A stretch of 32,000 bases of DNA from positions 780,001-812,000 of the forward strand of contig NZ_CP019964.1 in the NCBI RefSeq assembly GCF_002214165.1. The letters run 5' to 3'. Below are positions 510-32,000 of this stretch, in pieces. This DNA is from Candidatus Saccharimonadota bacterium (lineage in GTDB: Archaea; Micrarchaeota; Micrarchaeia; Micrarchaeales; Micrarchaeaceae). The notes beneath the pieces are model-generated. The model saw nothing but the letters and a program-made list of their open reading frames with translations, searched no databases and was not told the DNA's origin. Each line of letters opens with the position of its first letter. Position 1 is the first letter of the stretch. The position numbers and the translations under genes were made by a program.

Positions 510-613
510 CGGGCCCGACGGGATTTTCATGTTTGCTTTTTAGGACAAACAATTTGAACCCGTGACCATCAGCTTAGAAGGCTGCCGCTCTATCCAAGCT
601 GAGCTACGGGCCC
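510..613 (-). tRNA. tRNA-Arg(UCU) with a 29-nt non-canonical intron in the T-loop
   Basis: The minus strand reads GGGCCCG-TA-GCTC-AGCTTGGATA-GAGC-G-GCAGC-CTTCTAA-GCTGA-TGGTC-ACGGG-TTCAAAT-[insert, plus coords 523..551]-CCCGT-CGGGCCC-G. The 7-bp acceptor stem and the D and T stems pair perfectly, and the anticodon loop is CU-UCU-AA. The anticodon stem has one G27:A43 mismatch. 75 nt remain after the insert is removed. The insert is flanked by a bulge-helix-bulge motif (see findings). Confidence 0.85.
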
Positions 614-5171: not shown

Positions 5172-5285
5172 TTAAAGTTCTCCTACTCTACGTTTCTGAG
5201 CTCTCTTTAACCTTTTGCGCCTTTTCTTTTTCCATTTCCAGCGCATCCTGCCTTTCTTTTTCCATTTTCTAGGTATACTTCCCAA
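5172..5285 (-). CDS. rpl41e: Ribosomal protein L41e (mini-gene absent from the ORF track)
   Basis: The minus-strand translation is (L/M)GSIPRKWKKKGRMRWKWKKKRRKRLKRAQKRRVGEL*. The core KWKKKGRMRWKW..KKR..RLKR matches the archaeal and eukaryotic L41e consensus as I remember it. The start is uncertain: TTG at 5285, or ATG at 5246 giving MRWKWKKKRRKRLKRAQKRRVGEL. Confidence 0.65.
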   Translation of the reverse strand: MGSIPRKWKKKGRMRWKWKKKRRKRLKRAQKRRVGEL

Positions 5286-5547
5286 ATATTCACCTGTTTG
5301 AATGAATTAAACTTTTTAATAAACTATTTTGGTACTGTAAAGGCCTGCCATTTGTTTTAGGGCATTGCAATTACAGGTTTAAATACAAATAGTTACTTTT
5401 ATTACTAACTAAAAGTATAAATAAGTATCGCGTATTTGCTTATTTCGGTATCGTCTTGGATTACTCCTCATTCAATAGGCAGTATTTAAGGCTATCAGAA
5501 TTACTAACAATAATTAAATATTTAATCCTGTAAATTTAATTGATACC

Positions 5548-10784: not shown

Positions 10785-13700
10785 TTATTTATTGAGGTTG
10801 CTTAATTTGACCGCCACGGATCTTGATTCGTCATTCTGATTTACAAAACCTATTACAGCATCAGCTGATGTTATCAGCGTATCGTTGTGGCTCACCACTA
10901 TGAATTGTGATCTTTCACTCATTTTCTTAAGCAATAAGGATAGCTTCTTTGAATTATCCTTGTCTAATGCGGAATCGATCTCATCGAATATGTAGAATGA
11001 TTTAGGATCGCGCATCAGTATAGCAAATAGTAATATTAAAAGATTTAAAGATTTTTCCCCTCCCGATAAGGTTTCTGAATTCGCTTCCCTTCCGCTCTCC
11101 TTCTTCACGATTATGTTAAGCCCGGAATTAAAAGGGTCTTTTGGATTCTGCAGCACTAAACGTCCCTCTGTGCCAATTGTGACCTTGTGAAGGGTTGAGA
11201 AGTTCTCATTTACTTTGCTAAAGGTTTCATTGAATACTTCGAGCTTCTTGCGCTCTACCTCCTTTATCATTGACATTATTGAATTTTTCTCGCTGTCCAG
11301 TGTGTTAAGTTTTAATGCCGCCTCCTCCACCCCCTTACTTTTTTCAAGGTACATTTCAGGGGCTTTTAGGTTTACCTCCCCTAACTTTGAGAGGCTTGAT
11401 TTGAATTCTGAAAGCTTTCTCTCTAATTCCTCTATGCTGCCCTGCATCTCTTCAATTCCTTCATATGTGGATAGTTCTGCTTTTATATCTGACAGCCTTA
11501 CATTTGATTCTATGCTCCCCGACTTTAGGTCATTGATTTCCCTGTTCATTTGGTCAATGTGGGATGATATCCTGCCTTTCTCAAATCCTAAATCTTCAAT
11601 AGTCTTTTCAATACCTGAAAGCTTGTTATAAAGCTCTACACTGTCCTTATCTTGGGCCTTCATTATTGCTTCATTTTCCGCTTTAACCGCTTTCTCATCC
11701 TCCAGTTTGCTTTCAAAATCCTTAATCTGTGACTTTTGAAGTGCTATCTTAGATTCAACTTTCTTCAGTTCTTCTGATAGCTCTTGGAGCTTCGTTTTAT
11801 TTAATGCCACCTCCTTACTCTTTGACGCGTGGTCAACTTTCAGGCTTTCTATCTCTGATCTTAATTTTGGCAGATTCTGTACGCCCGATTTGGCAGGCAT
11901 GCTTGATTCTTTTTCCTCCATGGATTCCTTTAGCTTCTTTATTTTTAGGTCGATCATTGATTTCTCAGAATCGAGCATTTCAACTTCTTTTGAGAGAGAA
12001 CTAAGGTTGCTTTTTAATTCGCTTTCTTTTTCTTGTACTGTGCTTGCAGAATTATACTGTTCAAGCAGTTTTTTCTTGGTCTGTATTTCATTATCAATGT
12101 TCTCCAACCTTACTTGGTTTTGTGAGATCTGCCTAAAAGTCTCATTTATTAGCTCGTCAAGTTCTGCCTGCCTTGATGAAAGCCCTTTCCTTGTGGTCTC
12201 TGTCTCTTCCAGCTCCATTCTAAGCTTTCCTGGGAAAACATTGCTGCTTTTGGAACGCCCTCCTGTCACTATTCCTGAAGGCTCAACCAGCTCGCCATCA
12301 AGAGTGACGAATCTATACTTTCCAATCCCCAGCTTCTTTGCTTGCTCTATGTTGTCTATTATATATGTGTTGGAGAATATATATGCAAAAGCCTTTTCAA
12401 ATTTTGAATCGTACTCTATATGCCTTAAGAGCGGGTCCATCTTGTTCTCCTGCATCGGATAATAGGATATTTCCTCTATAGGTATGAAGGATGCACGCCC
12501 CATCATTGCTCTTTTGAGCACCTTTATGGCATTGTTAGCCGTACTTATGTTGTCCACTACAAAGTAATTCATCCTGCTTCCAGAAGCTGTATTTACGGCC
12601 TCTGAATACTTTTCATCATACCTGCATAACTCATATGCCCTTCCATAAAATCCTTCCTTGATCACGCTTTTAAGCGTTTCCTCCATGCTGTCTCTTGCCC
12701 CTCCGAAGCTTGATAACTGCTCCCTTAGATTTATGCTGCGGATATTTGCCTTGTCTAGTGCACCTCCTATCTCTATCCTCTCTGACTTTAATTGTGATAT
12801 AGATTTCCCTTCCTTGGATATCTCTGAACTCAGCCTTGCCTTTTCTAAGTCAAGGCGGGACAGATCCTCTTTTATGCTTTGGACGCTTTCTCCTGCTGTG
12901 GCAATCTTTGACTGTATTGATGAGTACTCAGATTTTAATTGCTCCAGCCTGACTTTTTTATCCGTATAATCGGAGTTCAATGAATTTAATTTGGCGGATT
13001 GCTCTTCGTATTCTTTCTGCAACGTTTTATATTCTTGCATCCCTGCATCATTTGCTGATTCAAGATCCTTGTAATAATTGGACTTTGACTCTATGTCTTT
13101 TGATATTGCTGCTAGCTCTGCCGATTCCGCCTCTATTAATGAGGATATCTTTGAGATATCTGATTTATGGCTCTCTAAACTGAGTTCTAGTTCCTTGACT
13201 GATTCGTTAAGGTTTGATATGTTTGCCAGGTAAACTGCAATGTTCTTGTTGGCATTTTCTACTGCCGCATTTATCGAGCCAAGCTTGCTGGATTTTAGAT
13301 TTATCTCTTTTGATATTTCATTATGCTTTGAAGATAAATCAGATATTTTTCCATTCAATGAGTCAAGCGAATCTTTCTCCTTTGAAAGAAGTTCGTTTTT
13401 GGCTTTGATTTCCTCATTTATCTTTGACATCCTTGAATCGATCTCCTCAAATCTCCTCTTCAGTACCGTATAATTTATTTTCTTTATTTGTGAGGCAAAA
13501 TGCTGGTATGCCTCTGCATCGTCTTTCTCTTTTTTGAGTTCGTTCAGGAAGCCAAGCCTTTCGCCAAGCAGTGCTTTTGCAGCGCTTATCTTTTCATCGA
13601 CCTTTCCAAGCTCTTTCAGTGAATCTTCACGCTTGTCATCGAATTCCTTAATCCCTGCGGCTATATCTATGAGGTATCTCCTTTCTTTTACGCTCAACCC

Positions 13701-22471: not shown

Positions 22472-23410
22472 TCAATAAAAAGATTCGATAGCTCTGTGGT
22501 ATGGGTTCTTTTTGTAAGTACCTTCTATTGGAATCTTACAGCCGCATTTCTTGCATCTGTTATCATTATCGAGATCCCACCTGGTTATCCCAAAGCCGTT
22601 CCTCCTTATAACTTCCTCTCCGCAGTTTGGGCAGTAAGTGCTTTCGTGTTCGTTTCCAGGAACGTTCCCTATGTATACGAACCTCAGCCCGTTCTTCTTC
22701 GCTATCTCATAATGCTCTTCCAAGCTCTTTAAGCTGGTATAAGGGTAATTGTACATCTTGTAATCCGGGTAGAACCTTGTAAACTGTATCGGCGTGTCCC
22801 TGCCAATGTTGCCTGCGATCCACTTTGTCAACGAATCTGCTGCCTCCAATGAGTCTCCGACTTTTGGGACTATCAAATCGGTTATCTCTATGTGTATACC
22901 AGCTTTACTCAAGTTTAACAAAGTCTCTTTTATGGGTTCTTCTTTTGGGACTGTTTCGTACTTGTTCATGAATTTCTGATCGCCATTTCCCTTAAAGTCA
23001 ACAACCACTGCATCTATCTTTCCCTTTATCGCTTCCACTGCCTCCTTTGTCATATAGCCATTGCTTACGAATACGGTAAACAATCCGTTCTTCTTGGCCA
23101 AATCGGCAACATCCAGCGCATATTCTATAAAGATGGTGGGCTCGTTATAAGTAAATGCAATACCGTCAACTTTGTTGGCAATTGCCATATCAACCAAGCT
23201 TTCGGGGCTTACATAATCCTGGTTTATCTCTTTTTCCTTGGATATCGCATGATTCTGGCAGAATGCACAATCAAAATTGCATGAATCTGTCCCGACTCCT
23301 AGCACCCAGCTGCCTGGCATGAAGTGGTTGAAGGGCTTCTTTTCTATAGGGTCTATCTGCATCGCTGATAAAGAATCAGGATACCAATAAGGCATACGCA
23401 GAGGTGTCAA
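22472..23410 (-). CDS. Radical SAM enzyme, AmmeMemoRadiSam / PflA-like family (N-terminus appears short)
   Basis: The product has DPIEKKPFNHFMPGS, then CNFDCAFCQNH (CxxxCxxC), and a C-terminal CPNCG...CKKCGC zinc ribbon. The start is TTG 23410 or ATG 23395, and an in-frame stop lies at 23429..23431. Confidence 0.8.
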   Translation of the reverse strand: MTPLRMPYWYPDSLSAMQIDPIEKKPFNHFMPGSWVLGVGTDSCNFDCAFCQNHAISKEKEINQDYVSPESLVDMAIANKVDGIAFTYNEPTIFIEYALDVADLAKKNGLFTVFVSNGYMTKEAVEAIKGKIDAVVVDFKGNGDQKFMNKYETVPKEEPIKETLLNLSKAGIHIEITDLIVPKVGDSLEAADSLTKWIAGNIGRDTPIQFTRFYPDYKMYNYPYTSLKSLEEHYEIAKKNGLRFVYIGNVPGNEHESTYCPNCGEEVIRRNGFGITRWDLDNDNRCKKCGCKIPIEGTYKKNPYHRAIESFY

Positions 23411-23595
23411 ATAATGACAACATACTTCTCAAAGGAATGAGCAAATCAACATTCTTTCAGAGCGTAAACTATTTACAGAACCTTGGATTAATCACCTTAA
23501 TAAAGAAAAAGATTGGCAGATACTATACAATGGAGTCGCAAATATTATTATCAGACGAATCAATAGTATCTGCGGAGCTAAGAAAAAGAATTTGA
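23404..23595 (+). CDS. Small winged-helix-like ORF or gene fragment at the island boundary
   Basis: STFFQSVNYLQNLGLITLIKKKIGRYY resembles a recognition helix plus wing. The GTG start overlaps the radical SAM start on the other strand, and ATG 23437 is an alternative start. It may be a remnant. Confidence 0.3.
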   Translation: MSNNDNILLKGMSKSTFFQSVNYLQNLGLITLIKKKIGRYYTMESQILLSDESIVSAELRKRI

Positions 23596-23621
23596 AAGAA
23601 ATAAGTTTTTATGATATAACA

Positions 23622-23629
23622 TTTATATA
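23622..23629 (+). promoter_or_regulatory. TATA-like box (TTTATATA) about 27 nt upstream of the GC-rich island
   Basis: The spacing fits archaeal TATA-to-start geometry if the island is transcribed from the plus strand. The flanks are AT-rich, so a chance match is possible. Confidence 0.3.
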
Positions 23630-23654
23630 AATAAATTTAAGAGTACATCCTAAA

Positions 23655-24105
23655 TTCCGCTTCGACTCAAATTCACCCCGACTTCGCTCCGCTCAGCCAC
23701 CCCTCTTTGAGCCTCCGCTATTTACTATGTGCCCTCCGCTCGCCTGCACGCCGAGCACAGGACCCCATGCTTCGCCTCCAATCAAAATTCACCCCGTCTT
23801 GCTTACGCAATCCACCCCTCTTTTGATTTACGGCTCGCACTCTTTCTCCGAAAGAGCCCCTCCTTTGCTACGCTCATCTGGGGTGGTGTCCTGTGCTCGC
23901 CGCTCGTGGTGTATGTGTGGTGCTACACACCATCGCTTCGCTTGGTGTTCCACACCACCCACCGCTGACGCTTACACCACTCGGTCCTGCTTCGCAGGAC
24001 TTCCGGCTCGCTTCGGGCACATTATTCTCTCCTGCGGAGTGCAATATAGGGGAGGGGGCTTAAGGGGATGCTTGACCGCACAATGTCGCTTCGCTTAGTG
24101 CGGAT
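23655..24105. ncRNA. GC-rich, hairpin-dense non-coding island; candidate novel structured RNA or ssDNA-active site (strand unresolved)
   Basis: GC content jumps sharply against AT-rich flanks. Five perfect hairpins, a 12-bp long-range inverted repeat and two paralogous stem-loops with compensatory closing pairs are present. The heptamer GCTTCGC occurs four times. Only implausible overlapping ORFs lie here. Details are in the findings. Confidence 0.45.
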
Positions 24106-24167
24106 AAATTGCTTATTTATCGATCATAAATTCTAAATATAAAAATCAAATATATGAAGGATGCTCA

Positions 24168-24341
24168 ATGGATAAGAAAGATGTTGAAAACTTGATGAAT
24201 GCGATTAAAATGACAGTGAACGTAGTTAAAAATGAATTTGATGTATTGGAGGGGATTGATAAAAAAGACCCAAAGAAAACACTTGACAGTATTAGCAAAG
24301 CCATAGATGATTTCTTAACCGATTTAAAGGGATTTAAATGA
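24168..24341 (+). CDS. Small acidic helical ORF (57 aa), hypothetical
   Basis: It reads ATG...TGA as MDKKDVENLMNAIKMTVNVVKNEFDVLEGIDKKDPKKTLDSISKAIDDFLTDLKGFK. It falls below the ORF-track cutoff and I have no homology knowledge. Confidence 0.3.
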   Translation: MDKKDVENLMNAIKMTVNVVKNEFDVLEGIDKKDPKKTLDSISKAIDDFLTDLKGFK

Positions 24342-24368
24342 ATCTTAAAATAGATTGGATATAATCTA

Positions 24369-24548
24369 TTATTTTCTTACGAATTTTACATTTACGTTTG
24401 GTACAAACCAAGAAGGAGTTCCCACGTCGATTTCATTTAGTTCAAATTTTCTTTGTCTGGTCTTCCTATCAACATTTTTAGTATATCCTCTTACGTATGT
24501 TCCATCTCTTCTTTTGTACGGCTTTACCCAAGCCTTATTAATCCACAT
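24369..24548 (-). CDS. Small basic ORF (59 aa), hypothetical nucleic-acid-binding protein
   Basis: The product is MWINKAWVKPYKRRDGTYVRGYTKNVDRKTRQRKFELNEIDVGTPSWFVPNVNVKFVRK. It lies antisense to the listed hydrophobic ORF 24355..24573 (TTG start). Which of the two, if either, is real cannot be decided here. Confidence 0.3.
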   Translation of the reverse strand: MWINKAWVKPYKRRDGTYVRGYTKNVDRKTRQRKFELNEIDVGTPSWFVPNVNVKFVRK

Positions 24549-24678
24549 TATAATATCATATCAAAATGATTAAAAACATTTTCTATTTTAGTATTCACTT
24601 AAAACATTAATCAAATCCCGACCGGTCCATTTAAACTATTAATCGAATACTTCTTATGCCATTACTCGTTATGCTATC

Positions 24679-25949
24679 ATGACCATTCAGCCCAAGTATC
24701 AGGATCTTCTTCTTGATGAGGATGTGCGGAGATGGTTTGAAAATTTAAGGGCAAAGTCAGTTTTGACTGCAACGGTGGCATTGAGAAACCTCGGTCATTA
24801 TTGCGAAATGACAGGAACAACGCCCAAGCAGATTCTCGAAAAGGCAAGGAAAAACGAGAAGGATTTCCGCTATGAATTTTCTGATTTTGTAAGGGAAATG
24901 GAGAGTAAAGGAAAAGCGGGCTCATACATTGCAAGGTTCAAGAAGGTTATTCTGTCATGGCTGAAGTTTAACGGTATCCGTTTACAGTTAGCCGTTAACA
25001 TATCCGGAGAGAACGAAACGCCGACGATAGCAAATGAGAGAGTGCCCAGCAAGGAAGAGCTTGCAAGAATATTGAGAAAAGCGACATCGCGAGGAAGGGT
25101 TATCATAGCATTAATGGCATTTTCAGGGCTAAGACCGGAATCGCTTGGAGATTACGAGGGCACTGATGGATTGCGATTGGGAGATTTAAAGGAGTTAAAA
25201 CTATCAGACGAGATACAGTTCGACAAGATCCCTGTTACTGTAATGGTGAAGAGCAAGCTTAGCAAGGCAAGGCATCAGTATTTCTCATTCATAGGTGAGG
25301 AGGGAGCAACATACATAAAGGAATACCTCGAAGAGAGGAGGAAACAGGGAGAGGAACTGACCTATGATTCGCCGCTGTTGCAGTTCGATGTCCGAGGAAT
25401 AAAGAAGAATGCATTCCTAAGGACAACGCTCGTTACAAGGGATGTCAGAGATGCAATATACGGGGCAGCGTATTAAGGGCGTATTTCTCAATGGCACTTG
25501 ACATAGCAGAGAGCAAGGGCTTAATATCGCATCCTTGGAGGCAGTTCATAATGGGGCACAAGGGCGATATCGAAGCCAGATACAGCACGAACAAGAGACT
25601 GCCTCCGGACATGATCGAGGAGATGCGCGAATCGTACAAGAAATGCTTAAAGTACCTCGAAACAAGGATAACAGAGCCATCGGAGATCGATGCAAAAATA
25701 TACCTACAACAGCAACTGCTTCTCGCAGTGGGCTACAAACAGGATGAAATCGATATGATGAACCTTGCTGAGATGGACAACGATGCATTCCAGAAACTTC
25801 TTCGCGACAAGGTTGCTGGCGCAATGTCAGGCAACGGCTCAAAGCAGAGGCTCGTGCCTGTAGATGAAATAGAAAAATTCCTCAGTCAAGGCTACGAGTT
25901 TCAGGCAGTTTTGCCCAACGGAAAGGCTATAATGAAAATGCCGTTTTAA
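24679..25949 (+). pseudogene. Tyrosine recombinase/integrase (archaeal integrase family), split by a frameshift
   Basis: ORF 24679..25476 has a SAM-like N-domain and box I (AFSGLRPESLGD). ORF 25491..25949 has box II (HPWRQFIMGHKGDIEARY). The conserved VLRAYFSMALDIAE segment is readable in frame 3 from 25461 (RGSVLRAYF...), while frame 1 ends ...RDAIYGAAY*. This implies a 1-nt indel around 25455-25465, next to a G4 run. Confidence 0.85.
25912..25942 (+). repeat. Direct repeat copy 1 (31 nt, inside the last codons of the integrase)
   Basis: TGCCCAACGGAAAGGCTATAATGAAAATGCC is identical to 27736..27766. Confidence 0.95.
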
Positions 25950-25971
25950 TTGTTAAAATATCATAGTAAAG

Positions 25972-25986
25972 TATATATATATATAA
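25972..25986 (+). promoter_or_regulatory. TATA-rich box upstream of cassette 1
   Basis: TATATATATATATAA is centred about 24 nt upstream of ATG 26003. This suggests a leaderless or short-leader mRNA and matches the geometry at cassette 2. Confidence 0.35.
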
Positions 25987-26002
25987 TTTTGATCTAATTA
26001 TT

Positions 26003-26878
26003 ATGGGTAGCCGTAAAAATGAATTAATAATGAGCGGAGCTGTGATAGTAAGCAAAGATGGAAACGTTTTGAAAACAAAGATTAATAACTACAAAACACC
26101 GATAAAAGTGTCACCAAAGATTCCAACCCCCAACGTTATCGCCAACAGTGGCTTGAAAAATATGTCTCTGATTTTCTCAGATAAGACACAGGGTTACCAC
26201 ATGGCATTCCGGGAAATGAATTATGACATCACAGAAAAGCAGGTAGTTCAGTCAGGAAAAGCATATTCATTATATTTTGAGATAACAGATGATGAAGACA
26301 CGACATATTTGGAAGGAAATATAATCCCTCTCGAAAGCAATAAAGGCGTTTTATTTTTATCGGTTAATGTTTCTCCCAAGAATCCAGAAAATGTTGACCT
26401 TTTTTCCCTTCCCATAGTCATTCGTTATAAAGGAAGCTTTCTGTCCATAATAAAAGACTTGAGTTCCATCATAAGTAATTTGAAAAAAGATGCGTCGACG
26501 AAACGAAACAGAATTTATGGAAAAATGGTGTCTCTTCTTGAAGCTTTTCCTGACATATATGCAAATAATCGAAATCGATTAGATATCATAAATAATCTAG
26601 AACTATCGTTCAAAGTTACCCTTATGGATTTTAATTTTACATGTTGTCTCGAAAATGCATTAAGTTTGACCGATTGTGTGCTTAGTGTTCCAGATATTGA
26701 AGAAATATGTGCTGAATGTTTGGTTTTACCCGATTGCTTGGCAGCTTGCTTTGACTTCCTAACACTCCCTGCATGTCTTGTCTGTTTTAGTCTTGATGTT
26801 CTTGCTTGCGCCTATTGTGTATATAAAGCAGGAGAATGCACTGAAGATGCAATAAAAGTGATTGACTGCTGCAAGTAA
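26003..26878 (+). CDS. Cassette 1 lead protein: Cys-free 213-aa N-domain plus a 78-aa hydrophobic C-terminal region with 14 Cys (candidate archaeocin precursor)
   Basis: The 291-aa product has no Cys in residues 1-213. Its Cys residues fall at 214, 215, 225, 236, 239, 245, 249, 258, 261, 269, 272, 279, 289 and 290 (nt 26642..26875). No N-terminal signal peptide is evident. Confidence 0.7.
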   Translation: MGSRKNELIMSGAVIVSKDGNVLKTKINNYKTPIKVSPKIPTPNVIANSGLKNMSLIFSDKTQGYHMAFREMNYDITEKQVVQSGKAYSLYFEITDDEDTTYLEGNIIPLESNKGVLFLSVNVSPKNPENVDLFSLPIVIRYKGSFLSIIKDLSSIISNLKKDASTKRNRIYGKMVSLLEAFPDIYANNRNRLDIINNLELSFKVTLMDFNFTCCLENALSLTDCVLSVPDIEEICAECLVLPDCLAACFDFLTLPACLVCFSLDVLACAYCVYKAGECTEDAIKVIDCCK

Positions 26879-26887
26879 AGTGACTTT

Positions 26888-27292
26888 ATGATTATAACCA
26901 GCAAGAGAAAGTTTTATGAATCCATACTTTCATATAGCATAGCTTGGATTTTCTTATATCTGTCAGTATTCCTATCACAGCACATAAAATATGATGGAAA
27001 CTTTACATCCGCAATACCTATATTATTTCCTCTGGTATTTGCCATGGTAGCCATAGGGGTCTCCATTTTGTTTATTCTTGGAAAGGAATATCCGTGGTTC
27101 TTTAGAACTGGAATTATGAGTCTTGCTATCGGAGTAACCCTATTCATTTTCGGGATAATAACGTATTATTCTGGTGTTGAATCTCTACTCTGGGGAGGGT
27201 CAGTAGGAATAGGCGTTTTGTTTGTAATTGCAGCAATTGTTAGATTAACTATACAAGGTGGCTTAAGTGCATACAGAAAAGCAAAGAATTAG
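26888..27292 (+). CDS. Small polytopic membrane protein (about 4 TM), cassette 1
   Basis: The 134-aa hydrophobic ORF starts 9 nt after the lead gene's stop. Confidence 0.6.
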   Translation: MIITSKRKFYESILSYSIAWIFLYLSVFLSQHIKYDGNFTSAIPILFPLVFAMVAIGVSILFILGKEYPWFFRTGIMSLAIGVTLFIFGIITYYSGVESLLWGGSVGIGVLFVIAAIVRLTIQGGLSAYRKAKN

Positions 27293-27494
27293 AGCAGTAT
27301 TTCTTTTGAGCTTTGGAACTGTATTTCTTATTTCAGGTATTGCGGGTCTATTATCGTTATCCATTTCCTATAACATTAAATCTTTTGGAACAGTAATTGC
27401 ATCGTTATCTGTTATTGCTGGAGCGTATTTTCTCCTCAATGCGTATTTTGTTTGGAACAACACAGCGACTAGAGGATTGGGAGAAGACACATGA
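27267..27494 (+). CDS. Small membrane protein (2 TM), cassette 1
   Basis: The 75-aa ORF has a GTG start that overlaps the previous ORF by 26 nt. Confidence 0.5.
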   Translation: MHTEKQRIRAVFLLSFGTVFLISGIAGLLSLSISYNIKSFGTVIASLSVIAGAYFLLNAYFVWNNTATRGLGEDT

Positions 27495-27700
27495 ATCCGT
27501 ACAGATATCACATCATCCTTGTGACCATTGTATCTTTTGTTGTTCTGATAATCAATATTATGGCTTATTTAGCAAAGGACGAGACCAATTATCTCTATCT
27601 TTTTGACATGGCTTATGTAGTTGGAAATAGTGCTCATTTTATAGCCTTATCCATCTCCTCAAATGGCATAAATATTGAAGATGAAAAGAAGGTAAAATAG
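27491..27700 (+). CDS. Small membrane protein (2 TM), cassette 1
   Basis: The 69-aa ORF shares an ATGA start/stop overlap with the previous ORF, indicating translational coupling. Confidence 0.5.
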   Translation: MNPYRYHIILVTIVSFVVLIINIMAYLAKDETNYLYLFDMAYVVGNSAHFIALSISSNGINIEDEKKVK

Positions 27701-27713
27701 CTTTGTATTCCGG

Positions 27714-27728
27714 ATTCTATAATAGAAT
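27714..27728. repeat. Perfect palindrome ATTCTAT-A-ATAGAAT
   Basis: It lies 14 nt after the last cassette-1 stop and 6 nt before the integrase-tail remnant. Confidence 0.8.
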
Positions 27729-27734
27729 TATAAT

Positions 27735-27773
27735 CTGCCCAACGGAAAGGCTATAATGAAAATGCCTTTTTAG
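27735..27773 (+). pseudogene. Orphan integrase C-terminal remnant (13 codons, LPNGKAIMKMPF*) containing direct repeat copy 2 (27736..27766)
   Basis: CTG CCC AAC GGA AAG GCT ATA ATG AAA ATG CCT TTT TAG encodes the same peptide as 25911..25949. It differs only at synonymous positions (TTG/CTG, CCG/CCT) and in the stop codon (TAA/TAG). Confidence 0.85.
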
Positions 27774-27930: not shown

Positions 27931-28572
27931 ATGACCTGCAGTAATTGTTTTGATGCAAATGGTAGAAAAATAACAAGAATAAGTGTGCCACATAAGGAGG
28001 AATATACAGAGGGGAAACTAAAAATAACGGAAGGTGTGACAATTGTTCATTACAAAGAGGGCCCAGGGACGATCCTAAATTGGAAACAAATAATTGAGGG
28101 CAATACCTCCTCCATTGCAGACATAACTTATATTATACAATATAATGGTAAAAATATTACAAACAAGTTTAAAACCAAATACATTGACACAATAAATGGC
28201 AAGAAACTTGTTCACGTTGACGGAACTGGATTGGGCTCTAATGGGAAAGTAAACGTAACTAACAAGGATATTGCTCTTTCAAATGTAAAATCAGATCCAA
28301 ACGCCATTGAATGTCTTATTTGTCATGCTCTTGGAACCGTGCTTTGTACACTTCTTGCAGAGGGTGTATCAGAGGACTTAGCTTGTGAAGAGGCATCTGG
28401 CATCGTATGCTTAGAATTCATAGAGGATCCTATTGTTTATGTCGTTTGTTTTGGGGTTGTCGCATCAATTTGCGATGTTGTTCTACAAACAGTAATAGAT
28501 ATTGGTGTTCATGTTGCATGCGACCTTGGTGCAGACTACATATGCGAGAAGGCGATTGGATGTTCTTTATGA
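27931..28572 (+). CDS. Cassette 2 lead protein: beta-rich N-domain plus an 86-aa hydrophobic C-terminal region with 10 Cys (candidate halocin-C8-like precursor)
   Basis: The 213-aa product has the C-terminal spacing C128-x2-C-x7-C-x12-C-x7-C-x12-C-x7-C-x15-C-x7-C-x5-C211 (nt 28312..28569). A CxxC sits at residues 3-6. No signal peptide is evident. Confidence 0.7.
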   Translation: MTCSNCFDANGRKITRISVPHKEEYTEGKLKITEGVTIVHYKEGPGTILNWKQIIEGNTSSIADITYIIQYNGKNITNKFKTKYIDTINGKKLVHVDGTGLGSNGKVNVTNKDIALSNVKSDPNAIECLICHALGTVLCTLLAEGVSEDLACEEASGIVCLEFIEDPIVYVVCFGVVASICDVVLQTVIDIGVHVACDLGADYICEKAIGCSL

Positions 28573-28617: not shown

Positions 28618-29145
28618 ATGAGATATAGATTAATCTATTTAAGCATTGGCATTGCAATAATGGTCATTGACATATTACTTGCTCTCAAGTATCCAAAAAT
28701 ATTGATCTATAGCCTATGGGGTTCCTTCCTAGGTTTCTTCATTCCTTTTGGTATAGGATTTTCGACCCTACTCTACGGAGCATTTAAGGCCAAGGATTAT
28801 GGGATAAATCCGGTAATTGGAACAATAGGCTCAGGAGGCTTCACCAGAGTGATTAGGCAGAACAGGATTCAGGGCACAAGAACTTGGAAGACTGACCATG
28901 ATATACTTTCTGAACTTCCTGGGGCCCTAAAATCCCCTGACGGGAAAACAGTTGAATACAGCAGTTTGTTCATAAGAAAGCCCTATGGATCAACAAAATA
29001 CACGAAAAGACTAAACGAAGCGGCCAATAAGTATATTGCAGGGGAAATAGATGAGGAAGGATTTTATAACTATGTCGGAAAGCGTGGACCCAAGGAGGAA
29101 CAGATGCTTGAATTTATCAAAAAATTCAAGAATGATTATAGGTGA
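28618..29145 (+). CDS. Membrane protein (2 N-terminal TM plus a ~100-aa soluble domain), cassette 2
   Basis: The 175-aa ORF has normal composition, and I recognise no family. Confidence 0.6.
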   Translation: MRYRLIYLSIGIAIMVIDILLALKYPKILIYSLWGSFLGFFIPFGIGFSTLLYGAFKAKDYGINPVIGTIGSGGFTRVIRQNRIQGTRTWKTDHDILSELPGALKSPDGKTVEYSSLFIRKPYGSTKYTKRLNEAANKYIAGEIDEEGFYNYVGKRGPKEEQMLEFIKKFKNDYR

Positions 29146-30127: not shown

Positions 30128-30310
30128 GTGGAAAAGGCAGACGTTGACATAACAAAGGTAAAATCAACATTCGCCAGCAAATTCCCAGAGCACCCGTTAA
30201 CAAAAATACTGATTTCAGAGCCGGATTACTTAACGGCAGAAGAATTCCTCGCAAAGGTACAGACATGGCTTGCCTTTTTCAACGGAGATGGAGAAGATGG
30301 AAAGAACTGA
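30128..30310 (+). CDS. Small hypothetical ORF
   Basis: The 60-aa ORF has a GTG start and overlaps the next ORF. Confidence 0.35.
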   Translation: MEKADVDITKVKSTFASKFPEHPLTKILISEPDYLTAEEFLAKVQTWLAFFNGDGEDGKN

Positions 30311-30635
30311 AAGGATTGTTTTGAGAGGAGAGGAAGAGCCTCAGGTAATAAGGTATGTGATGGCAGACCCTCAGAAGAAGGGCACGCTCGAAAGGCTCCA
30401 GGAAACCGTTATCGAGAAAACGGTTAACCAGTACGAGCTTGAGGACCGCAGGCAGATAGATTCGGTGATGAGATTCATGGAACGCAATCCGGACATAAGC
30501 TATGTTGAATATGAATCGAATCCTGTTTTCCGGATAGATCGGACGATAACAAAGCTCGGTCTCATATTTAGGCGTGAGGAGGCAACAATATCGGCAACGA
30601 TAACACCGAACAGAAGATTCAGGGCCCAGAGGTAA
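30288..30635 (+). CDS. Hypothetical protein of the element
   Basis: ATG 30288 (MEKMERTERIVLRGEE...) is preferred over the listed TTG 30270. Composition is normal. Confidence 0.5.
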   Translation: MEKMERTERIVLRGEEEPQVIRYVMADPQKKGTLERLQETVIEKTVNQYELEDRRQIDSVMRFMERNPDISYVEYESNPVFRIDRTITKLGLIFRREEATISATITPNRRFRAQR

Positions 30636-30638
30636 AGC

Positions 30639-31043
30639 ATGGACGAAGATACATTAATCCTGACATTTTTGGTATCAGCCCCTGCTTTTTTCATAACGAG
30701 TTTGCTATGGCCCGGACTATTTCAGCATCTCATATCCATGGCGACCTCAGGCAACATTTTTTACGAGATTATTGGCATTGCAGGCATCGCTTATGCAGTC
30801 ATCGGTGCTGTCATAATCATAATATTCGCATTCACACTGCTGATTTACATACTAGTATTCGGAGTTATCTTTTTCTTCCCTGCTTACCTCATATACACAA
30901 TGCTTGGCTTAGAATATTCACTGATCCTAGTTGCAGTTCTATGCACCATCGCAATACTCTATTTCTTGGAGACACACACGGTCAGCGTGGAGCACTATAC
31001 GATTGTTGTAAACCCGCACAGGCGATACATAATTAAAAGGTAG
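30639..31043 (+). CDS. Polytopic membrane protein of the element
   Basis: The 134-aa ORF has 3-4 TM segments. It starts 3 nt after the previous stop and lies directly upstream of the ATPase. Confidence 0.55.
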   Translation: MDEDTLILTFLVSAPAFFITSLLWPGLFQHLISMATSGNIFYEIIGIAGIAYAVIGAVIIIIFAFTLLIYILVFGVIFFFPAYLIYTMLGLEYSLILVAVLCTIAILYFLETHTVSVEHYTIVVNPHRRYIIKR

Positions 31044-31084: not shown

Positions 31085-32000
31085 ATGAAGGAAACTGGCT
31101 TCTCTGACTTTGTAAACGCAAGGAAGATCCTCTCAAAGCCGATAATAGAACTACCAATAAGAAATCAGGAGAGGCTTTTCTATAACCCATTTTCAAGGCT
31201 AAAGAGGTTCGCAGGGCATTCAGCGTTGGCCTATGCCATTGTTCCCGATATGGAAAAGGGAAAGTTCAGGAGGGAGGAATGCTCAGCAAGAGCCATTGAT
31301 TTAAGGGATTACATAGAGCACAAGGGAAACAGGAATGTGTCCATAACAGGTGTATCAGGGCAGGGAAAGAGCTATCTCACGATACATTTACTATCGAAGT
31401 TCAGCGAGAAGCAGAGGATCATATTCTCGTTCAAGCCCGATGACCATGAAGTCCATCTTGGAATACCAGTAATAGATGCAAAGCAGTGCTTACCGAATCC
31501 GTTCAGGGACATAAATGCCTTCTCAGAGGCTTACATGACCGCATTTTTCAGTGAGAAGACAAGCACAGGAATACAGCTACAGCAGACACCAGCTTTTCTG
31601 CAGGAAATAGCCTCCCAGAGCAACGACTGGAAGACATTCATGAAAATGATATCCGAAAAAAGAAAATCAGCCTCGAAGAACCAGATCGAAACGCTCAACG
31701 CAATAGAGCAGAATGTGAAATCGCTCATAATCGATGACATGGGAAGCGTGGAAATAGGCAGTGAAAGCATTGTGTTTGATTTCTCAACATTACCGACGAA
31801 GCAGTCCCAGAACTTCTATGCCGAGCTTATGCTAAGGCAGATCTACAGGGAGATGGAGGAACGCAAAAGAAAGGATGTTTTGATATGCATAGACGAGGCT
31901 CACAGGCTTACGAAATCCTATCATACTATTCTTGATGTAATGAGCCGTGAGATAAGGGACAAGGGAATGCTCTGGATAATAACGCAGAACCTTATCGATA
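31085..32000 (+). CDS. P-loop NTPase, HerA/VirB4/DUF87-like (3' end outside window; absent from the ORF track)
   Basis: The frame is open from ATG 31085 to the window end (305 codons). Walker A is ITGVSGQGKSY and Walker B is DVLICIDEAHRL. Confidence 0.8.
   Translation, partial: MKETGFSDFVNARKILSKPIIELPIRNQERLFYNPFSRLKRFAGHSALAYAIVPDMEKGKFRREECSARAIDLRDYIEHKGNRNVSITGVSGQGKSYLTIHLLSKFSEKQRIIFSFKPDDHEVHLGIPVIDAKQCLPNPFRDINAFSEAYMTAFFSEKTSTGIQLQQTPAFLQEIASQSNDWKTFMKMISEKRKSASKNQIETLNAIEQNVKSLIIDDMGSVEIGSESIVFDFSTLPTKQSQNFYAELMLRQIYREMEERKRKDVLICIDEAHRLTKSYHTILDVMSREIRDKGMLWIITQNLID

Follow-up and report, generated by a model that had tools for sequence, protein, structure and literature searches.

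A conserved 29-nucleotide integrase tail borders exchangeable cassettes in a family of archaeal integrative plasmids

In the window (the whole 32,000-nucleotide stretch of DNA analysed here), the 3' end of an integrase gene is repeated, without the gene, behind a cassette of small genes, and in related loci the same sequence borders cassettes that are present, absent, reordered or attached to other backbones, with homology breaking at the repeated core. We put at roughly 50% the probability that integrase-led units accreted at a tRNA gene and that their conserved integrase tails then served as short homologies for recombination.

A repeated integrase tail beside a broken integrase

The window carries the following features, all on the + strand.

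23404-23595, +, remnant (last 63 aa) of an Orc1/Cdc6-type replication initiator (clustering, blastn)
24591-24650, +, tRNA-type att junction (comparison with the tRNA site of relatives)
24679-25949, +, tyrosine-recombinase (integrase) pseudogene (comparison with intact 429-aa genes; XerA_Arch)
25912-25948, +, repeat copy 1: 29-nt core at 25914-25942, then Pro-Phe-stop (repeat search, synonymous-site diversity)
26003-26878, +, cassette A gene A1, 291 aa, C-terminal 80 residues Cys-rich and hydrophobic (family clustering)
26888-27292, +, A2, predicted multi-pass membrane protein, 134 aa
27267-27494, +, A3, predicted membrane protein, 75 aa
27491-27700, +, A4, predicted membrane protein, 69 aa
27701-27735, +, spacer between A4 and copy 2, homologous across core-ended cassettes (alignment of 10 cassette ends)
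27736-27772, +, repeat copy 2: orphan core at 27738-27766, then Pro-Phe-stop, without a gene (repeat and integrase searches)
27931-28572, +, B1, first gene of cassette B, 213-aa halocin-C8-like precursor (TIGR04449, Cys pattern)
28618-29145, +, B2, cassette B membrane protein, 175 aa
29158-29418, +, B3, cassette B membrane protein, 86 aa
29465-30094, +, backbone gene B4
30128-30310, +, backbone gene c4
30270-30635, +, backbone gene B5
30639-31043, +, backbone gene B6
31085-32000, +, 5' part of backbone P-loop ATPase c10, open at the window end (translation)

The first-pass annotation had reported an exact 31-nt direct repeat, and our searches recovered it: TGCCCAACGGAAAGGCTATAATGAAAATGCC occurs twice on the + strand, at 25912-25942 and 27736-27766, with no third copy even when 3 mismatches were allowed, and 0 of 100 dinucleotide shuffles contained a match (chance expectation, none). 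A repeat search extended the match to 37 nt at 97% identity with one mismatch (25912-25948 versus 27736-27772), and this is the sole long direct repeat in the 18-32 kb part of the window. Copy 1 forms the final codons of ORF 25491-25949 (ending in AVLPNGKAIMKMPF and a stop), while copy 2 lies in an open frame of 15 codons with a stop on either side (NYNLPNGKAIMKMPF). Beyond the identical core, the copies differ as the annotation had described, by synonymous changes and the choice of stop codon (TTG/CTG, CCG/CCT, TAA/TAG). Its claim that nothing integrase-like precedes copy 2 also held: tblastn and blastn-short with the full-length integrase found no such sequence in 25950-27734, and only the 12-residue tail at 27735-27770 matched. 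Comparison with relatives narrows the functional unit to the 29-nt core (25914-25942 and 27738-27766) followed by N-TT-Y-TA-R (Pro-Phe-stop).

The duplication of the integrase 3' end was thus correctly recognized, but the annotation had overlooked that the integrase itself is a frameshifted pseudogene. It is broken into ORFs 24679-25476 and 25491-25949, in different frames, by a net 19-nt loss at ~25466-25474 that removes GMKMRPYV relative to the intact 429-aa genes of related loci (numbered with an L prefix) L002, L005, L014 and L019; the identical deletion is found in L054-L062. The best NCBIfam match was XerA_Arch (NF040815, E 2.5e-11, 43.6 bits against a cut-off of 220), with further matches to XerC and XerD. 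PF00589 matched weakly when searched directly; precomputed annotations list it for many of the homologues that are at least 80% identical. Intact copies carry the catalytic signature R..K..(H/Y)xxR..(H/W)..Y (GLRPES, YVLRAYF, GHKGDIEARY), and the YVLR box is out of reading frame in the window. Of 1995 matches to the integrase, the best 120 were at least 80% identical.

The primary att site of this integrase family is the 3' end of tRNA-Ala or tRNA-Val, which in relatives sits 50-70 nt upstream of the integrase gene. Most relatives have a complete tRNA-Ala (CGC or TGC) or tRNA-Val (CAC) at the place where the window has a right arm (GTATTCACTTAAAACATTAA, 24591-24610), a 19-nt tRNA-Ala 3' end (TCAAATCCCGACCGGTCCA, 24611-24629) and a left arm (TTTAAACTATTAATCGAATAC, 24630-24650). 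This junction, which had gone unnoticed together with the decay of the array, is a tandem or attP-like joint with no complete tRNA. The same right arm plus att lies behind cassettes in L006 and L080-L083. The layout is the classical one of tRNA-integrating elements (pNOB8-type), in that the tRNA adjoins the integrase gene and the 19-nt tRNA end is repeated in L006 and L080-83; of the repeated tRNA end, the window keeps the junction copy only.

The backbone is that of an integrated plasmid, with ParA, a serine resolvase (PF00239, E 2.8e-44), Orc1/Cdc6 and a P-loop ATPase. The Orc1/Cdc6 remnant groups with the C-terminal ends of Orc1/Cdc6-like proteins (361-417 aa) encoded by L003 and L023 and has 79-81% blastn identity to L003, L023 and L065; it represents the gene at the right end of a different element belonging to this family. 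The c10 homologue in L003 matches Pfam AAA_16 and AAA_10, and in the same genome c10 is truncated and joined to an Orc1 tail (L054 15083-16480, 465 aa). B5 and B6 are kept in nearly all loci. The window cassette B lacks the A4-like gene and terminal core that close cassette B in relatives. The window contains a decaying member of the family whose array is frozen: it combines a frameshifted integrase with a truncated backbone and has lost the core behind cassette B.

Genes of the cassettes

Cassette A encodes a Cys-rich ORFan and small membrane proteins. A1 has its own TATA-rich leader (25972-25993) and belongs to a family of 7 unnamed clusters; it had no match to Pfam or to halocin_C8_dom, and hhalign against the B1 family gave a nonsignificant E of 0.084. 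An A4-family gene stands ahead of every orphan core seen, and core-ended cassettes all share one 3' module of A4 gene, spacer and core. In the alignment of 10 cassette ends, the final ~17 bases of the spacer (27701-27735) resemble a decayed integrase tail; L005 and L074 retain GGTTYCAGKCAGTCCTG at this position.

Halocin C8 is made from a precursor, ProC8, that combines an N-terminal immunity part with a C-terminal 76-aa Cys-rich peptide (TIGR04449). This two-part layout is common to the B1 family, of which one member scores above the TIGR04449 cut-off. B1 itself, with its Cys-rich domain at residues 128-211, matched the whole 69-position profile at E 6.2e-4 and 20.7 bits (cut-off 24), while its homologue in L034 reached 53.3 bits (cut-off 24). 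Aligned over their whole length, the two proteins share 10 invariant Cys, and the Cys pattern is conserved family-wide. Cassette B is predicted to encode a halocin-C8-type toxin precursor together with small membrane proteins, and the small membrane proteins of the cassettes probably serve immunity or export. Compared with halocin C8, the B1 family is without a Tat or Sec signal and without ABC transporter or HalR neighbours; its neighbours are small membrane proteins, its hosts are wall-less acidophiles, and homology of A1 to halocin C8 is undetectable.

The core in related elements and a proposed route to stacked cassettes

A near-invariant 29-nt core closes every integrase gene at ~60 loci in Thermoplasmata genomes and metagenomes, with Cuniculiplasma, Acidiplasma and Ferroplasma among the hosts. 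It recurs as an orphan copy behind cassettes of 0.7-2 kb, and at either place it forms the left border of the next module, either the backbone operon or an archaeocin cassette. Polymorphic core-bounded arrays are found in the window, L005, L007, L015, L017, L047, L060/61 and L074. The window arrangement recurs at 99.7-100% identity in 8 further assemblies, while L060 and L061 match it only up to core 2, at ~99%; homology with L060 ends at 27769. The first-pass annotation had proposed looking in related genomes for further copies and for variants of the segment at 25943-27735. Both exist: relatives lack the segment, carry another in its place, have it in a different order or possibly have it twice, and copies and polymorphism together favour a real recombination junction over a one-off relic.

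A repeat without any role, whether duplicated once or left over from decay and then fixed across the relatives, is therefore very improbable, and so is an artefact of assembly. The broken integrase and fossil-like array of the window would fit such an origin, as would the duplicated unit of L005, which consists of two copies, 1992 bp each and 100% identical, with a repeat of 56 nt against a usual k of 55, so that an assembler loop may be responsible. Against it stand the 8 further assemblies, the near-invariance of the core at ~60 loci and the polymorphic cassette content, the very outcome that the first-pass annotation had named as contrary to a relic.

We favour a history in which units of integrase, core and cargo would have stacked in tandem at the tRNA att site and inner integrases were then lost. 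The first loss would be a deletion that spared the tail, and later losses could follow when the short identical cores of units that are co-resident or in tandem recombine with one another. The outcome would be the order integrase, core, cassette A, core, cassette B, backbone, and core-to-core exchange could also swap, delete and re-attach cassettes and backbones. Tandem att junctions occur in the window (24591-24650), L068 and L006, in support of accretion. Moreover, every window segment that follows a core is found elsewhere directly behind an intact integrase gene and its core: cassette A in L006 and L063; cassette B in L005, L007, L013, L034, L039, L065, L068 and L071-77; and the B4 backbone in L003, L008, L022 and L023. 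A backbone flank of 98-99% identity likewise lies behind different integrases, with or without a cassette.

Homologous recombination, one of three origins that the first-pass annotation had offered, is active in these elements. The C-part of the window integrase is 97% identical to L014 and the N-part 87.5%. In a comparison within one host strain, 8.5 kb of flank match at 100% identity and the integrase has 0 mismatches, while the right 540 nt of cassette A are 4.6% diverged and the sequence beyond core 2 is unrelated. These mosaic breakpoints inside the integrase and cassette A demonstrate homologous recombination at work. A second origin, tandem elements whose inner integrase was deleted down to its tail, could not be traced in the window but is seen in Cuniculiplasma divulgatum PM4, where residues 328-429 of a second integrase (300 nt, 69% identity) lie behind the cassette and end in a diverged core. 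Integrase tails ahead of orphan cores range from 300 nt in PM4 through 17 nt in L005 and L074 to the decayed remnant in the spacer. Coreless cassette joints (B3/B4 in the window, L068-70, L034) are compatible with an untidy past of general recombination. An empty/occupied pair that was clean, with both flanks identical, did not turn up among the relatives, and the elementary event was thus not seen directly.

General recombination at short homologies would suffice for these exchanges of cassettes and backbones. The core may be kept intact because it is coding within the integrase gene and also acts as a putative promoter for the following gene, GGAAAGGCTATAATG of the core lying at the expected BRE/TATA position. 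Across six gene types, the first backbone gene starts 12-24 nt past the core, in agreement with the spacing in A1 and B1, whose TATA-rich leaders lie 21-29 nt upstream of the ATG; the start 7 nt past the core in PM4 is short for such a role. Two further observations count against the favoured route. An identity of 29-37 nt is short for general recombination, and the broken-integrase element occurs at >99.7% identity in three chromosomal contexts, which indicates that trans-acting site-specific mobilisation is clearly active in this system.

Site-specific recombination and known cassette systems

Synonymous-site diversity is 0.12 over the 29-nt core compared with 0.40 over the whole integrase gene, and the drop coincides exactly with the repeated 29 nt, also in elements without cassettes. 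This constraint supports the favoured route, and it also speaks for dedicated site-specific recombination, a serious rival to which we give less weight. The core would then be a second site in the integrase 3' end, and the tyrosine recombinase of the family would capture and release integrase-less circular cassettes (A4, spacer, core) in cis or in trans. Placement at the 3' end would spare the integrase on insertion, making the system a functional analogue of integrons. Several features agree with this. In many left/right combinations, homology is lost at the edges of the core, the conserved 3' module closes each core-type cassette, and each cassette start restores the Pro-Phe-stop of the integrase. 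Orphan cores are intact while their flanks decay: conservation ends abruptly on the left, with CCCAAC persisting outside coding sequence and upstream of any BRE next to 17 integrase-like bases that have decayed; this points to a function as a site or to gene conversion that recurred. The orphan core of L010 and PM4 has diverged in its left 13 nt and is perfect in its right 16 nt, as in a hybrid site. Archaeal integrases whose target lies within their own gene are common (PMC8371274). Finally, the system appears to move units that lack an integrase at the tRNA att, as in the L080-83 arrays, which read tRNA-Ala, then A1-A2-A4-arm-att, then DUF4037 unit-arm-att. The same cassette type can end in a tRNA-type att arm (L006, L080-83) instead of a core, an analogy that would make the core, too, a possible recombinase site.

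Other evidence runs against a dedicated site. The dyad symmetry is unconvincing (9/14 positions around AACGG..CCGTT), with the right arm missing in many copies. The core has no significant similarity to the tRNA att of the family or to arm plus att, and is unchanged between tRNA-Ala- and tRNA-Val-specific elements. No attC-like hairpin was conserved in single-stranded DNA folds of five core sites (four cassette-end copies and the integrase-linked copy; six folds, with both strands of one; z -0.03 to -1.07). The core is missing at several joints, PM4 holds its second integrase remnant, and neither a circular cassette form nor a clean empty/occupied pair was found.

Another recombinase, either the serine resolvase of the element or the host XerA (IMEX-like, at a dif-like site), is a far less probable agent. 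The resolvase is encoded in the backbone, and integrase-less elements that exploit Xer are known in bacteria. However, res sites are dyad-symmetric crossover sites that the resolvase binds, as a rule just ahead of its gene, and the resolvase here has its own conserved res-like block directly upstream of its gene (TGTCACTAAACTTGTAATTTTAGTAACGCCACTAAAC; 8 loci), which shares nothing with the core, so we rejected a res-like identity. Mini-elements of integrase and cassette without a resolvase (L006, L071) keep the core. Xer/dif sites are 28 nt long, a 6-nt spacer separating two 11-nt inverted repeats, and the archaeal dif has this 11-6-11 form (PMC8371274), unlike the core, whose best symmetry by inspection has a 1-nt centre; a dif-like site was likewise rejected.

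The remaining origin in the first-pass annotation, integron-like capture, stands as far as the cassette-array architecture goes and fails on the defining features of integrons. As in integrons, a tyrosine recombinase gene precedes an array of short cassettes that each end in one conserved site, a promoter may lie within the integrase gene, and cassette content is polymorphic. Unlike integrons, including those reported from archaeal MAGs, which have IntI and a folded attC, these elements have a linear 29-nt identity; the array is co-directional and its site is within the 3' end of the integrase gene, a separate ordinary tRNA att exists, and catalysis at the core is hypothetical. An IntI/attC integron was rejected for want of an integrase match at the level of IntI, which has a specific insertion, as was the arrangement of attI upstream of intI with mostly promoterless single-gene cassettes transcribed from Pc, since the site is in the integrase 3' end and the cassettes have 3-4 genes with their own leaders. 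That the core is a true site-specific site, and the system an independently evolved archaeal counterpart of integrons in which a non-IntI tyrosine recombinase takes up and releases self-promoted archaeocin/immunity cassettes lacking an integrase, is a tentative reading; on it, the system would operate beside a second cassette system of the same element family that uses the tRNA att.

SSV-type integrases, with an attP inside the integrase gene that matches part of a host tRNA and with integration that splits the gene into N and C parts at the element ends, share a joint within integrase coding sequence. Here the integrase gene stays whole beside the tRNA, and the internal element is distinct from the chromosomal att and is at the extreme 3' end of the gene, with only Pro-Phe-stop exchanged. 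A suicidal SSV-type integrase was rejected because the core is not tRNA-like (nothing by ARAGORN or Rfam) and the integrase gene is contiguous at all intact loci. Redder et al. 2009, as cited in PMC8371274, describe module exchange between tandem archaeal elements. As in such elements and in the CIMEs of Streptococcus thermophilus, found with ICESt1/ICESt3, integrase-less units bordered by the att of a resident integrase element line up in tandem at a tRNA (L080-83, L006, window 24591-24650), and the inner recombination module is then lost. The picture of CIME-like units fits the att-flanked flavour only (L080-83), which would be mobilised in trans. In CIMEs the joint is att, whereas here it is the integrase tail, the units are very small (1.8-2 kb) and at least cassette B bears a putative archaeocin gene. 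Orphan arrays of CDI/Rhs systems similarly stack toxin-immunity modules downstream, each after a 3' fragment of a conserved gene; they are thought to arise by homologous-recombination displacement, with old immunity genes advantageous. Their upstream gene encodes a delivery domain, whereas here it encodes an integrase, toxin fusion is absent and the peptides are archaeal and halocin-C8-like.

We found no description of this integrative-plasmid family of acid-mine Thermoplasmatales in the literature searched, and a large family is now defined. The zone just 3' of the integrase is a hotspot where halocin-type cassettes are stacked and exchanged between elements within one strain, and stacked cassettes would build up weapons and immunities. 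The family illustrates modular evolution of archaeal mobile elements around very short conserved joints. Cultured C. divulgatum PM4 has an intact integrase and a core-flanked cassette, so site-specific and homologous exchange can be told apart at the bench. If exchange is site-specific, the core would represent an independent integron-like platform and a possible integration tool for archaea lacking genetics. For a natural community that is well studied, these elements offer a concrete, testable path by which archaeocins and their immunities could turn over.

The integrase-tail repeat in the window

The 31-nt sequence TGCCCAACGGAAAGGCTATAATGAAAATGCC occurs exactly twice in the whole window, both times on the + strand. 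No third copy with up to three mismatches was found there, and 0 of 100 shuffles matched. Allowing one mismatch, the repeat reaches 37 nt; no other long direct repeat lies in 18-32 kb. Copy 1 supplies the final codons of the second ORF of a tyrosine-recombinase gene (int), and copy 2 sits in a 15-codon open frame (stop-NYNLPNGKAIMKMPF-stop) that belongs to no gene. The first-pass annotation had described a perfect repeat at the int 3' end and downstream of it, and both coordinates were confirmed. Comparing the copies bore out that their differences outside the core (i.e., the 29-nt conserved int tail preceding Pro-Phe-stop) are synonymous only, and, as also claimed, nothing integrase-like was detected between the copies upstream of copy 2.

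Features of the window around the repeat
23404-23595: Orc1/Cdc6-like C-terminal 63 aa, left of the joint
24591-24650: three-part joint of conserved right arm, last 19 nt of tRNA-Ala and left arm (precedes int in all relatives)
24679-25476 and 25491-25949: the two ORFs of the int pseudogene
25912-25942, + strand: repeat copy 1 (core 25914-25942)
Downstream of copy 1: cassette A, with A1 (Cys-rich C-terminus, 291 aa), three small membrane proteins (A2, A3, A4), then a 35-nt spacer
27736-27766, + strand: repeat copy 2 (core 27738-27766)
Downstream of copy 2: cassette B, with B1 (213 aa), B2 and B3
After cassette B: backbone, with B4, c4, B5, B6 and the first part of a P-loop ATPase

The int product is a divergent tyrosine recombinase (XerA_Arch, E 2.5e-11; PF00589 on many homologues); a PDB sequence search with it returned nothing useful. 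Intact homologues are 429 aa long (...RDVRDAIYGAGMKMRPYVLRAYFSTALD...), and relative to these the window gene lacks a net 19 nt at ~25466-25474, which shifts the frame and splits the gene in two. The Orc1/Cdc6 tail and the joint at att (the 3' end of tRNA-Ala or tRNA-Val) show that what lies left of int is not simply host DNA but the right end of a further element belonging to this family. Within this remnant, a GC-rich, ORF-free stretch (23640-24110) folds far better than shuffles (z -5.6 on the + strand; z -6.5, -195 kcal/mol, on the - strand), carries many GCGAAGC motifs and has no copy in loci outside this genome; an unknown structured RNA is one possible reading. Rfam had no match at the core or across the GC-rich 23300-24700. 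At 555-613 (- strand), Rfam called a tRNA that ARAGORN missed, probably Arg(TCT), broken within the T-loop (…GGTTCAAAT/tgtttg). The break coincides with the start of the att identity of the window's integrase family and may mark the edge of another integration or rearrangement.

Relatives and cassette arrangements

A degenerate pattern accepting all synonymous variants of PNGKAIMKMP matched 23 loci among species-representative genomes, every one from Thermoplasmata (E-plasma, I-plasma, Acidiplasma aeolicum and Cuniculiplasmataceae), and 9 relevant metagenome contigs; no core copies were found in IMG/VR viral contigs. Protein-identity look-ups added ~30 further loci, among them that of the cultured strain Cuniculiplasma divulgatum PM4 (L065, LT719092.1, about 1,678,800-1,690,800), whose genome is complete. 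The integrase family is large, with 1995 matches, of which the best 120 are at least 80% identical; its hosts include Cuniculiplasma, Acidiplasma and Ferroplasma. Over the compared 6.5 kb the window is matched at 100% identity by two MAG/metagenome contigs, L054 and L055. In the ERZ27236xxx-ERZ27237xxx assemblies and JGI 3300024473, several variants of the array occur within one host strain. In most loci a complete tRNA-Ala (CGC/TGC) or tRNA-Val (CAC) ends 50-70 nt upstream of int. In one locus (L016, ~5260-5410), at least 34 nt from the 3' end of the tRNA-Ala region are doubled just upstream of int, the copies lying 131 nt apart and enclosing a short insert and a run of N.

Arrangements of int, core and cassettes among loci (L numbers; PM4 is L065)
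int-core, then backbone gene directly: L001-4, L008, L009, L011, L012, L014, L016, L018-24, L040-45
int-core-[B1 B2 B3 A4']-core-backbone: L007, L010, L074, PM4
B unit [B1 B2 B3 A4'] doubled: L005
[A]-core-[B]-core-backbone: L017
int-core-[A]-core-[B]-backbone: window, L054-59, L062
int-core-[A]-core-other backbone: L060, L061
int-core-[B], then A-like cassette, coreless between: L068-70
int-core-[A] ending in tRNA-type arm + att: L006

Homology between the window and L060 (98.9%) ends at 27769, the right edge of copy 2, and the sequence that follows copy 2 in L060 and L061 (TTTCTAGCCATGCGTGAATGC...) directly follows int-core in L004, L009, L011, L020 and L024. A single lineage of int tails, at least 93% identical across 120 nt, is linked to four unrelated right flanks, and one right flank to several left flanks. 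The annotation had allowed that the repeat might be a relic, with the 31-mer found nowhere else and the arrangement fixed. We found instead that the core recurs and the cassettes are polymorphic among relatives; the joint is thus real and recurrent, and a relic or artefact is scarcely credible. A four-gamete style test of left against right flank types gave many-to-many links and no strict incompatibility, and no clean empty/occupied pair whose two flanks are both near-identical turned up among the loci. As for the far end of the element, where the annotation proposed to look for the same core, L054, which reaches 4.9 kb past the window end, has no third core.

L005 (3424-7436) carries two 1992-bp cassette units that are 100% identical, in a 5x SPAdes contig whose repeat (56 nt) is just above k=55, and L074 has the unit once; the doubling may be genuine, or it may come from a loop made by the assembler. 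In L034 (4034-5470, - strand), a 478-aa transposase-like gene lies where a core is expected after the second halocin cassette.

The window array itself is a fossil: int is frameshifted, cassette B lacks (between 29418 and 29465) the A4-like gene and core with which it closes in relatives, and past the window end a shortened backbone ATPase is joined to an Orc1 tail, followed by a methylase and a helicase-type gene. The 19-nt-deleted int allele with cassettes A and B is shared by the window and L054-L062 at >99.7% identity in three chromosomal contexts (a radical-SAM/Orc1 remnant, AA_kinase-tRNA-Ala(TGC) and DEAD helicase-tRNA-Ala(CGC)), which indicates a recent move of the broken-int element, presumably through mobilisation in trans. 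The same metagenome contains a PM4-like element (L066) whose integrase is intact; this element could act in trans.

Constraint on the core and origin of the repeat

Across 15 distinct full-length int genes (each 1290 nt, gap-free), third-position diversity at invariant-amino-acid codons averaged 0.40 and fell to 0.12 at codons 418-426. Variation returned exactly at the limits of the repeat: to its left with the Leu codon, to its right with CCN TTY TAR. The low diversity is not a search artefact, since the pattern accepted all synonymous codons, and by this measure the core is a constrained DNA element. No partial core copies were found elsewhere in the loci (e.g., near the resolvase gene). A second patch of very low synonymous diversity (0.08 vs 0.40) covers int codons 93-108 (~24955-25002; TGGCTGAAGTTTAACGATATCCGTTTGCAGTTAACCGTTAACATA, with two GTTAAC), and AACGG/CCGTT motifs recur at fixed int positions 93, 300, 314, 1174, 1258 and 1282. 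In six different gene types the first backbone gene has its start codon 12-24 nt past the core, a spacing that places GGAAAGGCTATAATG where BRE and TATA stand upstream of A1 and B1. This promoter position would give a non-recombinase reason for the constraint; no promoter consensus was derivable from host genes in the window, where start sites are too uncertain.

We give roughly even odds (about 0.5) to the repeat having been made by accretion of elements together with short-homology recombination at this int tail, which would bear a promoter. Several observations count for accretion and general recombination: tandem att joints in the window, L068 and L006; modules that stand behind a core in the window and each occur elsewhere directly behind an intact int; remnants of int; mosaic genes; and several joints that are wholly coreless. 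In PM4 (11928-12255), a left-degenerate orphan core (i.e., one without an int gene) runs into residues 328-429 of a second integrase, which is 69% identical, lies between cassette and backbone and ends in a diverged core, CTGACTGGAAAGGCTATAATGAGGCTGCC; the fusion point has microhomology, AAATGC, in common with int codons 322-324. The earlier proposal that a second integrase was deleted down to its tail thus has a counterpart in PM4, but nothing integrase-like remains between the window copies. L005 and L074 keep 17 int-like bases ahead of the orphan core, and the spacer shared by the cassettes looks like a decayed form of this tail. A longer int tail comprising the A4 C-terminus and spacer reached significance in 1 of 36 comparisons (L047 vs L014) and was dropped because the att-type A4 of L006 has the same C-terminus.

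Homologous recombination, also proposed earlier, is active. The C-part of the window int shares 97% identity with its counterpart in the tRNA-Val element L014, the N-part only 87.5%; this change is a recombination breakpoint within int, and it may divide target specificity from catalysis. Within one host strain, 8.5 kb of flank are 100% identical and int has 0 mismatches, the last 540 nt of cassette A are 4.6% diverged, and the rest is unrelated.

A weighty though less likely alternative is that the core is a dedicated site for site-specific recombination. Non-coding orphan cores are conserved with a sharp left edge, all core-type cassettes end in one 3' module (A4-spacer-core), and the near-identity of the broken-int element in its three contexts also speaks for such a site. 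So does the occurrence of cassette A with a tRNA-type arm and att in place of the core, a form that builds integrase-less tandem arrays in L080-83 (tRNA-Ala / A1-A2-A4-arm-att / DUF4037-arm-att) and makes trans mobilisation of integrase-less units part of the system. However, the similarity between core and att is not significant, and the core is unchanged in tRNA-Val elements, which argues against the integrase using it as att. Likenesses between core and tRNA attP noted by eye (CCCAACGG vs CCCGACCGG, CTATAATGAAAAT vs CTATTAATCGAAT) were equalled by shuffles in 19-81% of trials, and spacer plus core showed no significant similarity to right arm plus att. Each unit of the L080-L083 arrays (e.g., L081 135-3315) ends in the right arm and a 19-nt tRNA end, and these arrays, built at the tRNA att, are CIME-like or integron-like.

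That other recombinases act on the core is very improbable: it lacks the 11-6-11 symmetry of dif/Xer, and upstream of the serine resolvase gene stands a separate conserved res-like block that bears no relation to the core. This 85-nt block (L003 5820-5904; same place in L009, L011, L019, L023, L024, L044 and L047) contains ACTAAAC repeats and an ACTAAA/TTTAGT inverted repeat, and the DNA to its left varies between loci; it is likely a res site and a second module boundary. Integron-like capture, as first suggested, fits in that the cassette array at the core is polymorphic. An integron proper was rejected: the integrase is not IntI, the site lies in the int 3' end, the cassettes are multi-gene with their own TATA-rich leaders, and a fold test did not support an attC-like hairpin at the core. 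The array resembles a cassette platform in its working but stands outside the integron family.

Cassette contents and the element family

Residues 128-211 of the window B1 match the whole TIGR04449 model (halocin C8 domain) at E 6.2e-4 and 20.7 bits, below the cut-off of 24; a B1 homologue in the second cassette of L034 scores 53.3 bits, and the two proteins align throughout with a conserved Cys pattern. The N-terminal part of the halocin C8 precursor is the immunity protein (bioRxiv 10.64898/2026.07.27.741052), and B1 shares this layout. A1 has a Cys-rich hydrophobic tail resembling that of B1, with no detectable homology to the halocin C8 domain or the B1 family. The A1 family falls into seven clusters, without annotation, and the B1 family into five. 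No family was assigned to the small membrane proteins, which we infer to serve in immunity or export, and PADLOC gave no match on the cassette and backbone proteins.

Gene order of the full element
1: int, wHTH-like B4-type gene, c4, B5, B6
2: P-loop ATPase, 590 aa
3: ParA (PF13614, E 1e-62), then a small protein
4: serine resolvase (PF00239, E 2.8e-44)
5: Orc1/Cdc6

The element is an integrated plasmid. Integrase relatives were absent from PLSDB plasmids and INPHARED phages, and the literature searched held no description of the family. Together, these results identify the repeat as a conserved int tail at which the cassettes of an archaeocin array are joined, in a family of integrative plasmids of Thermoplasmatales that had not been characterised before.
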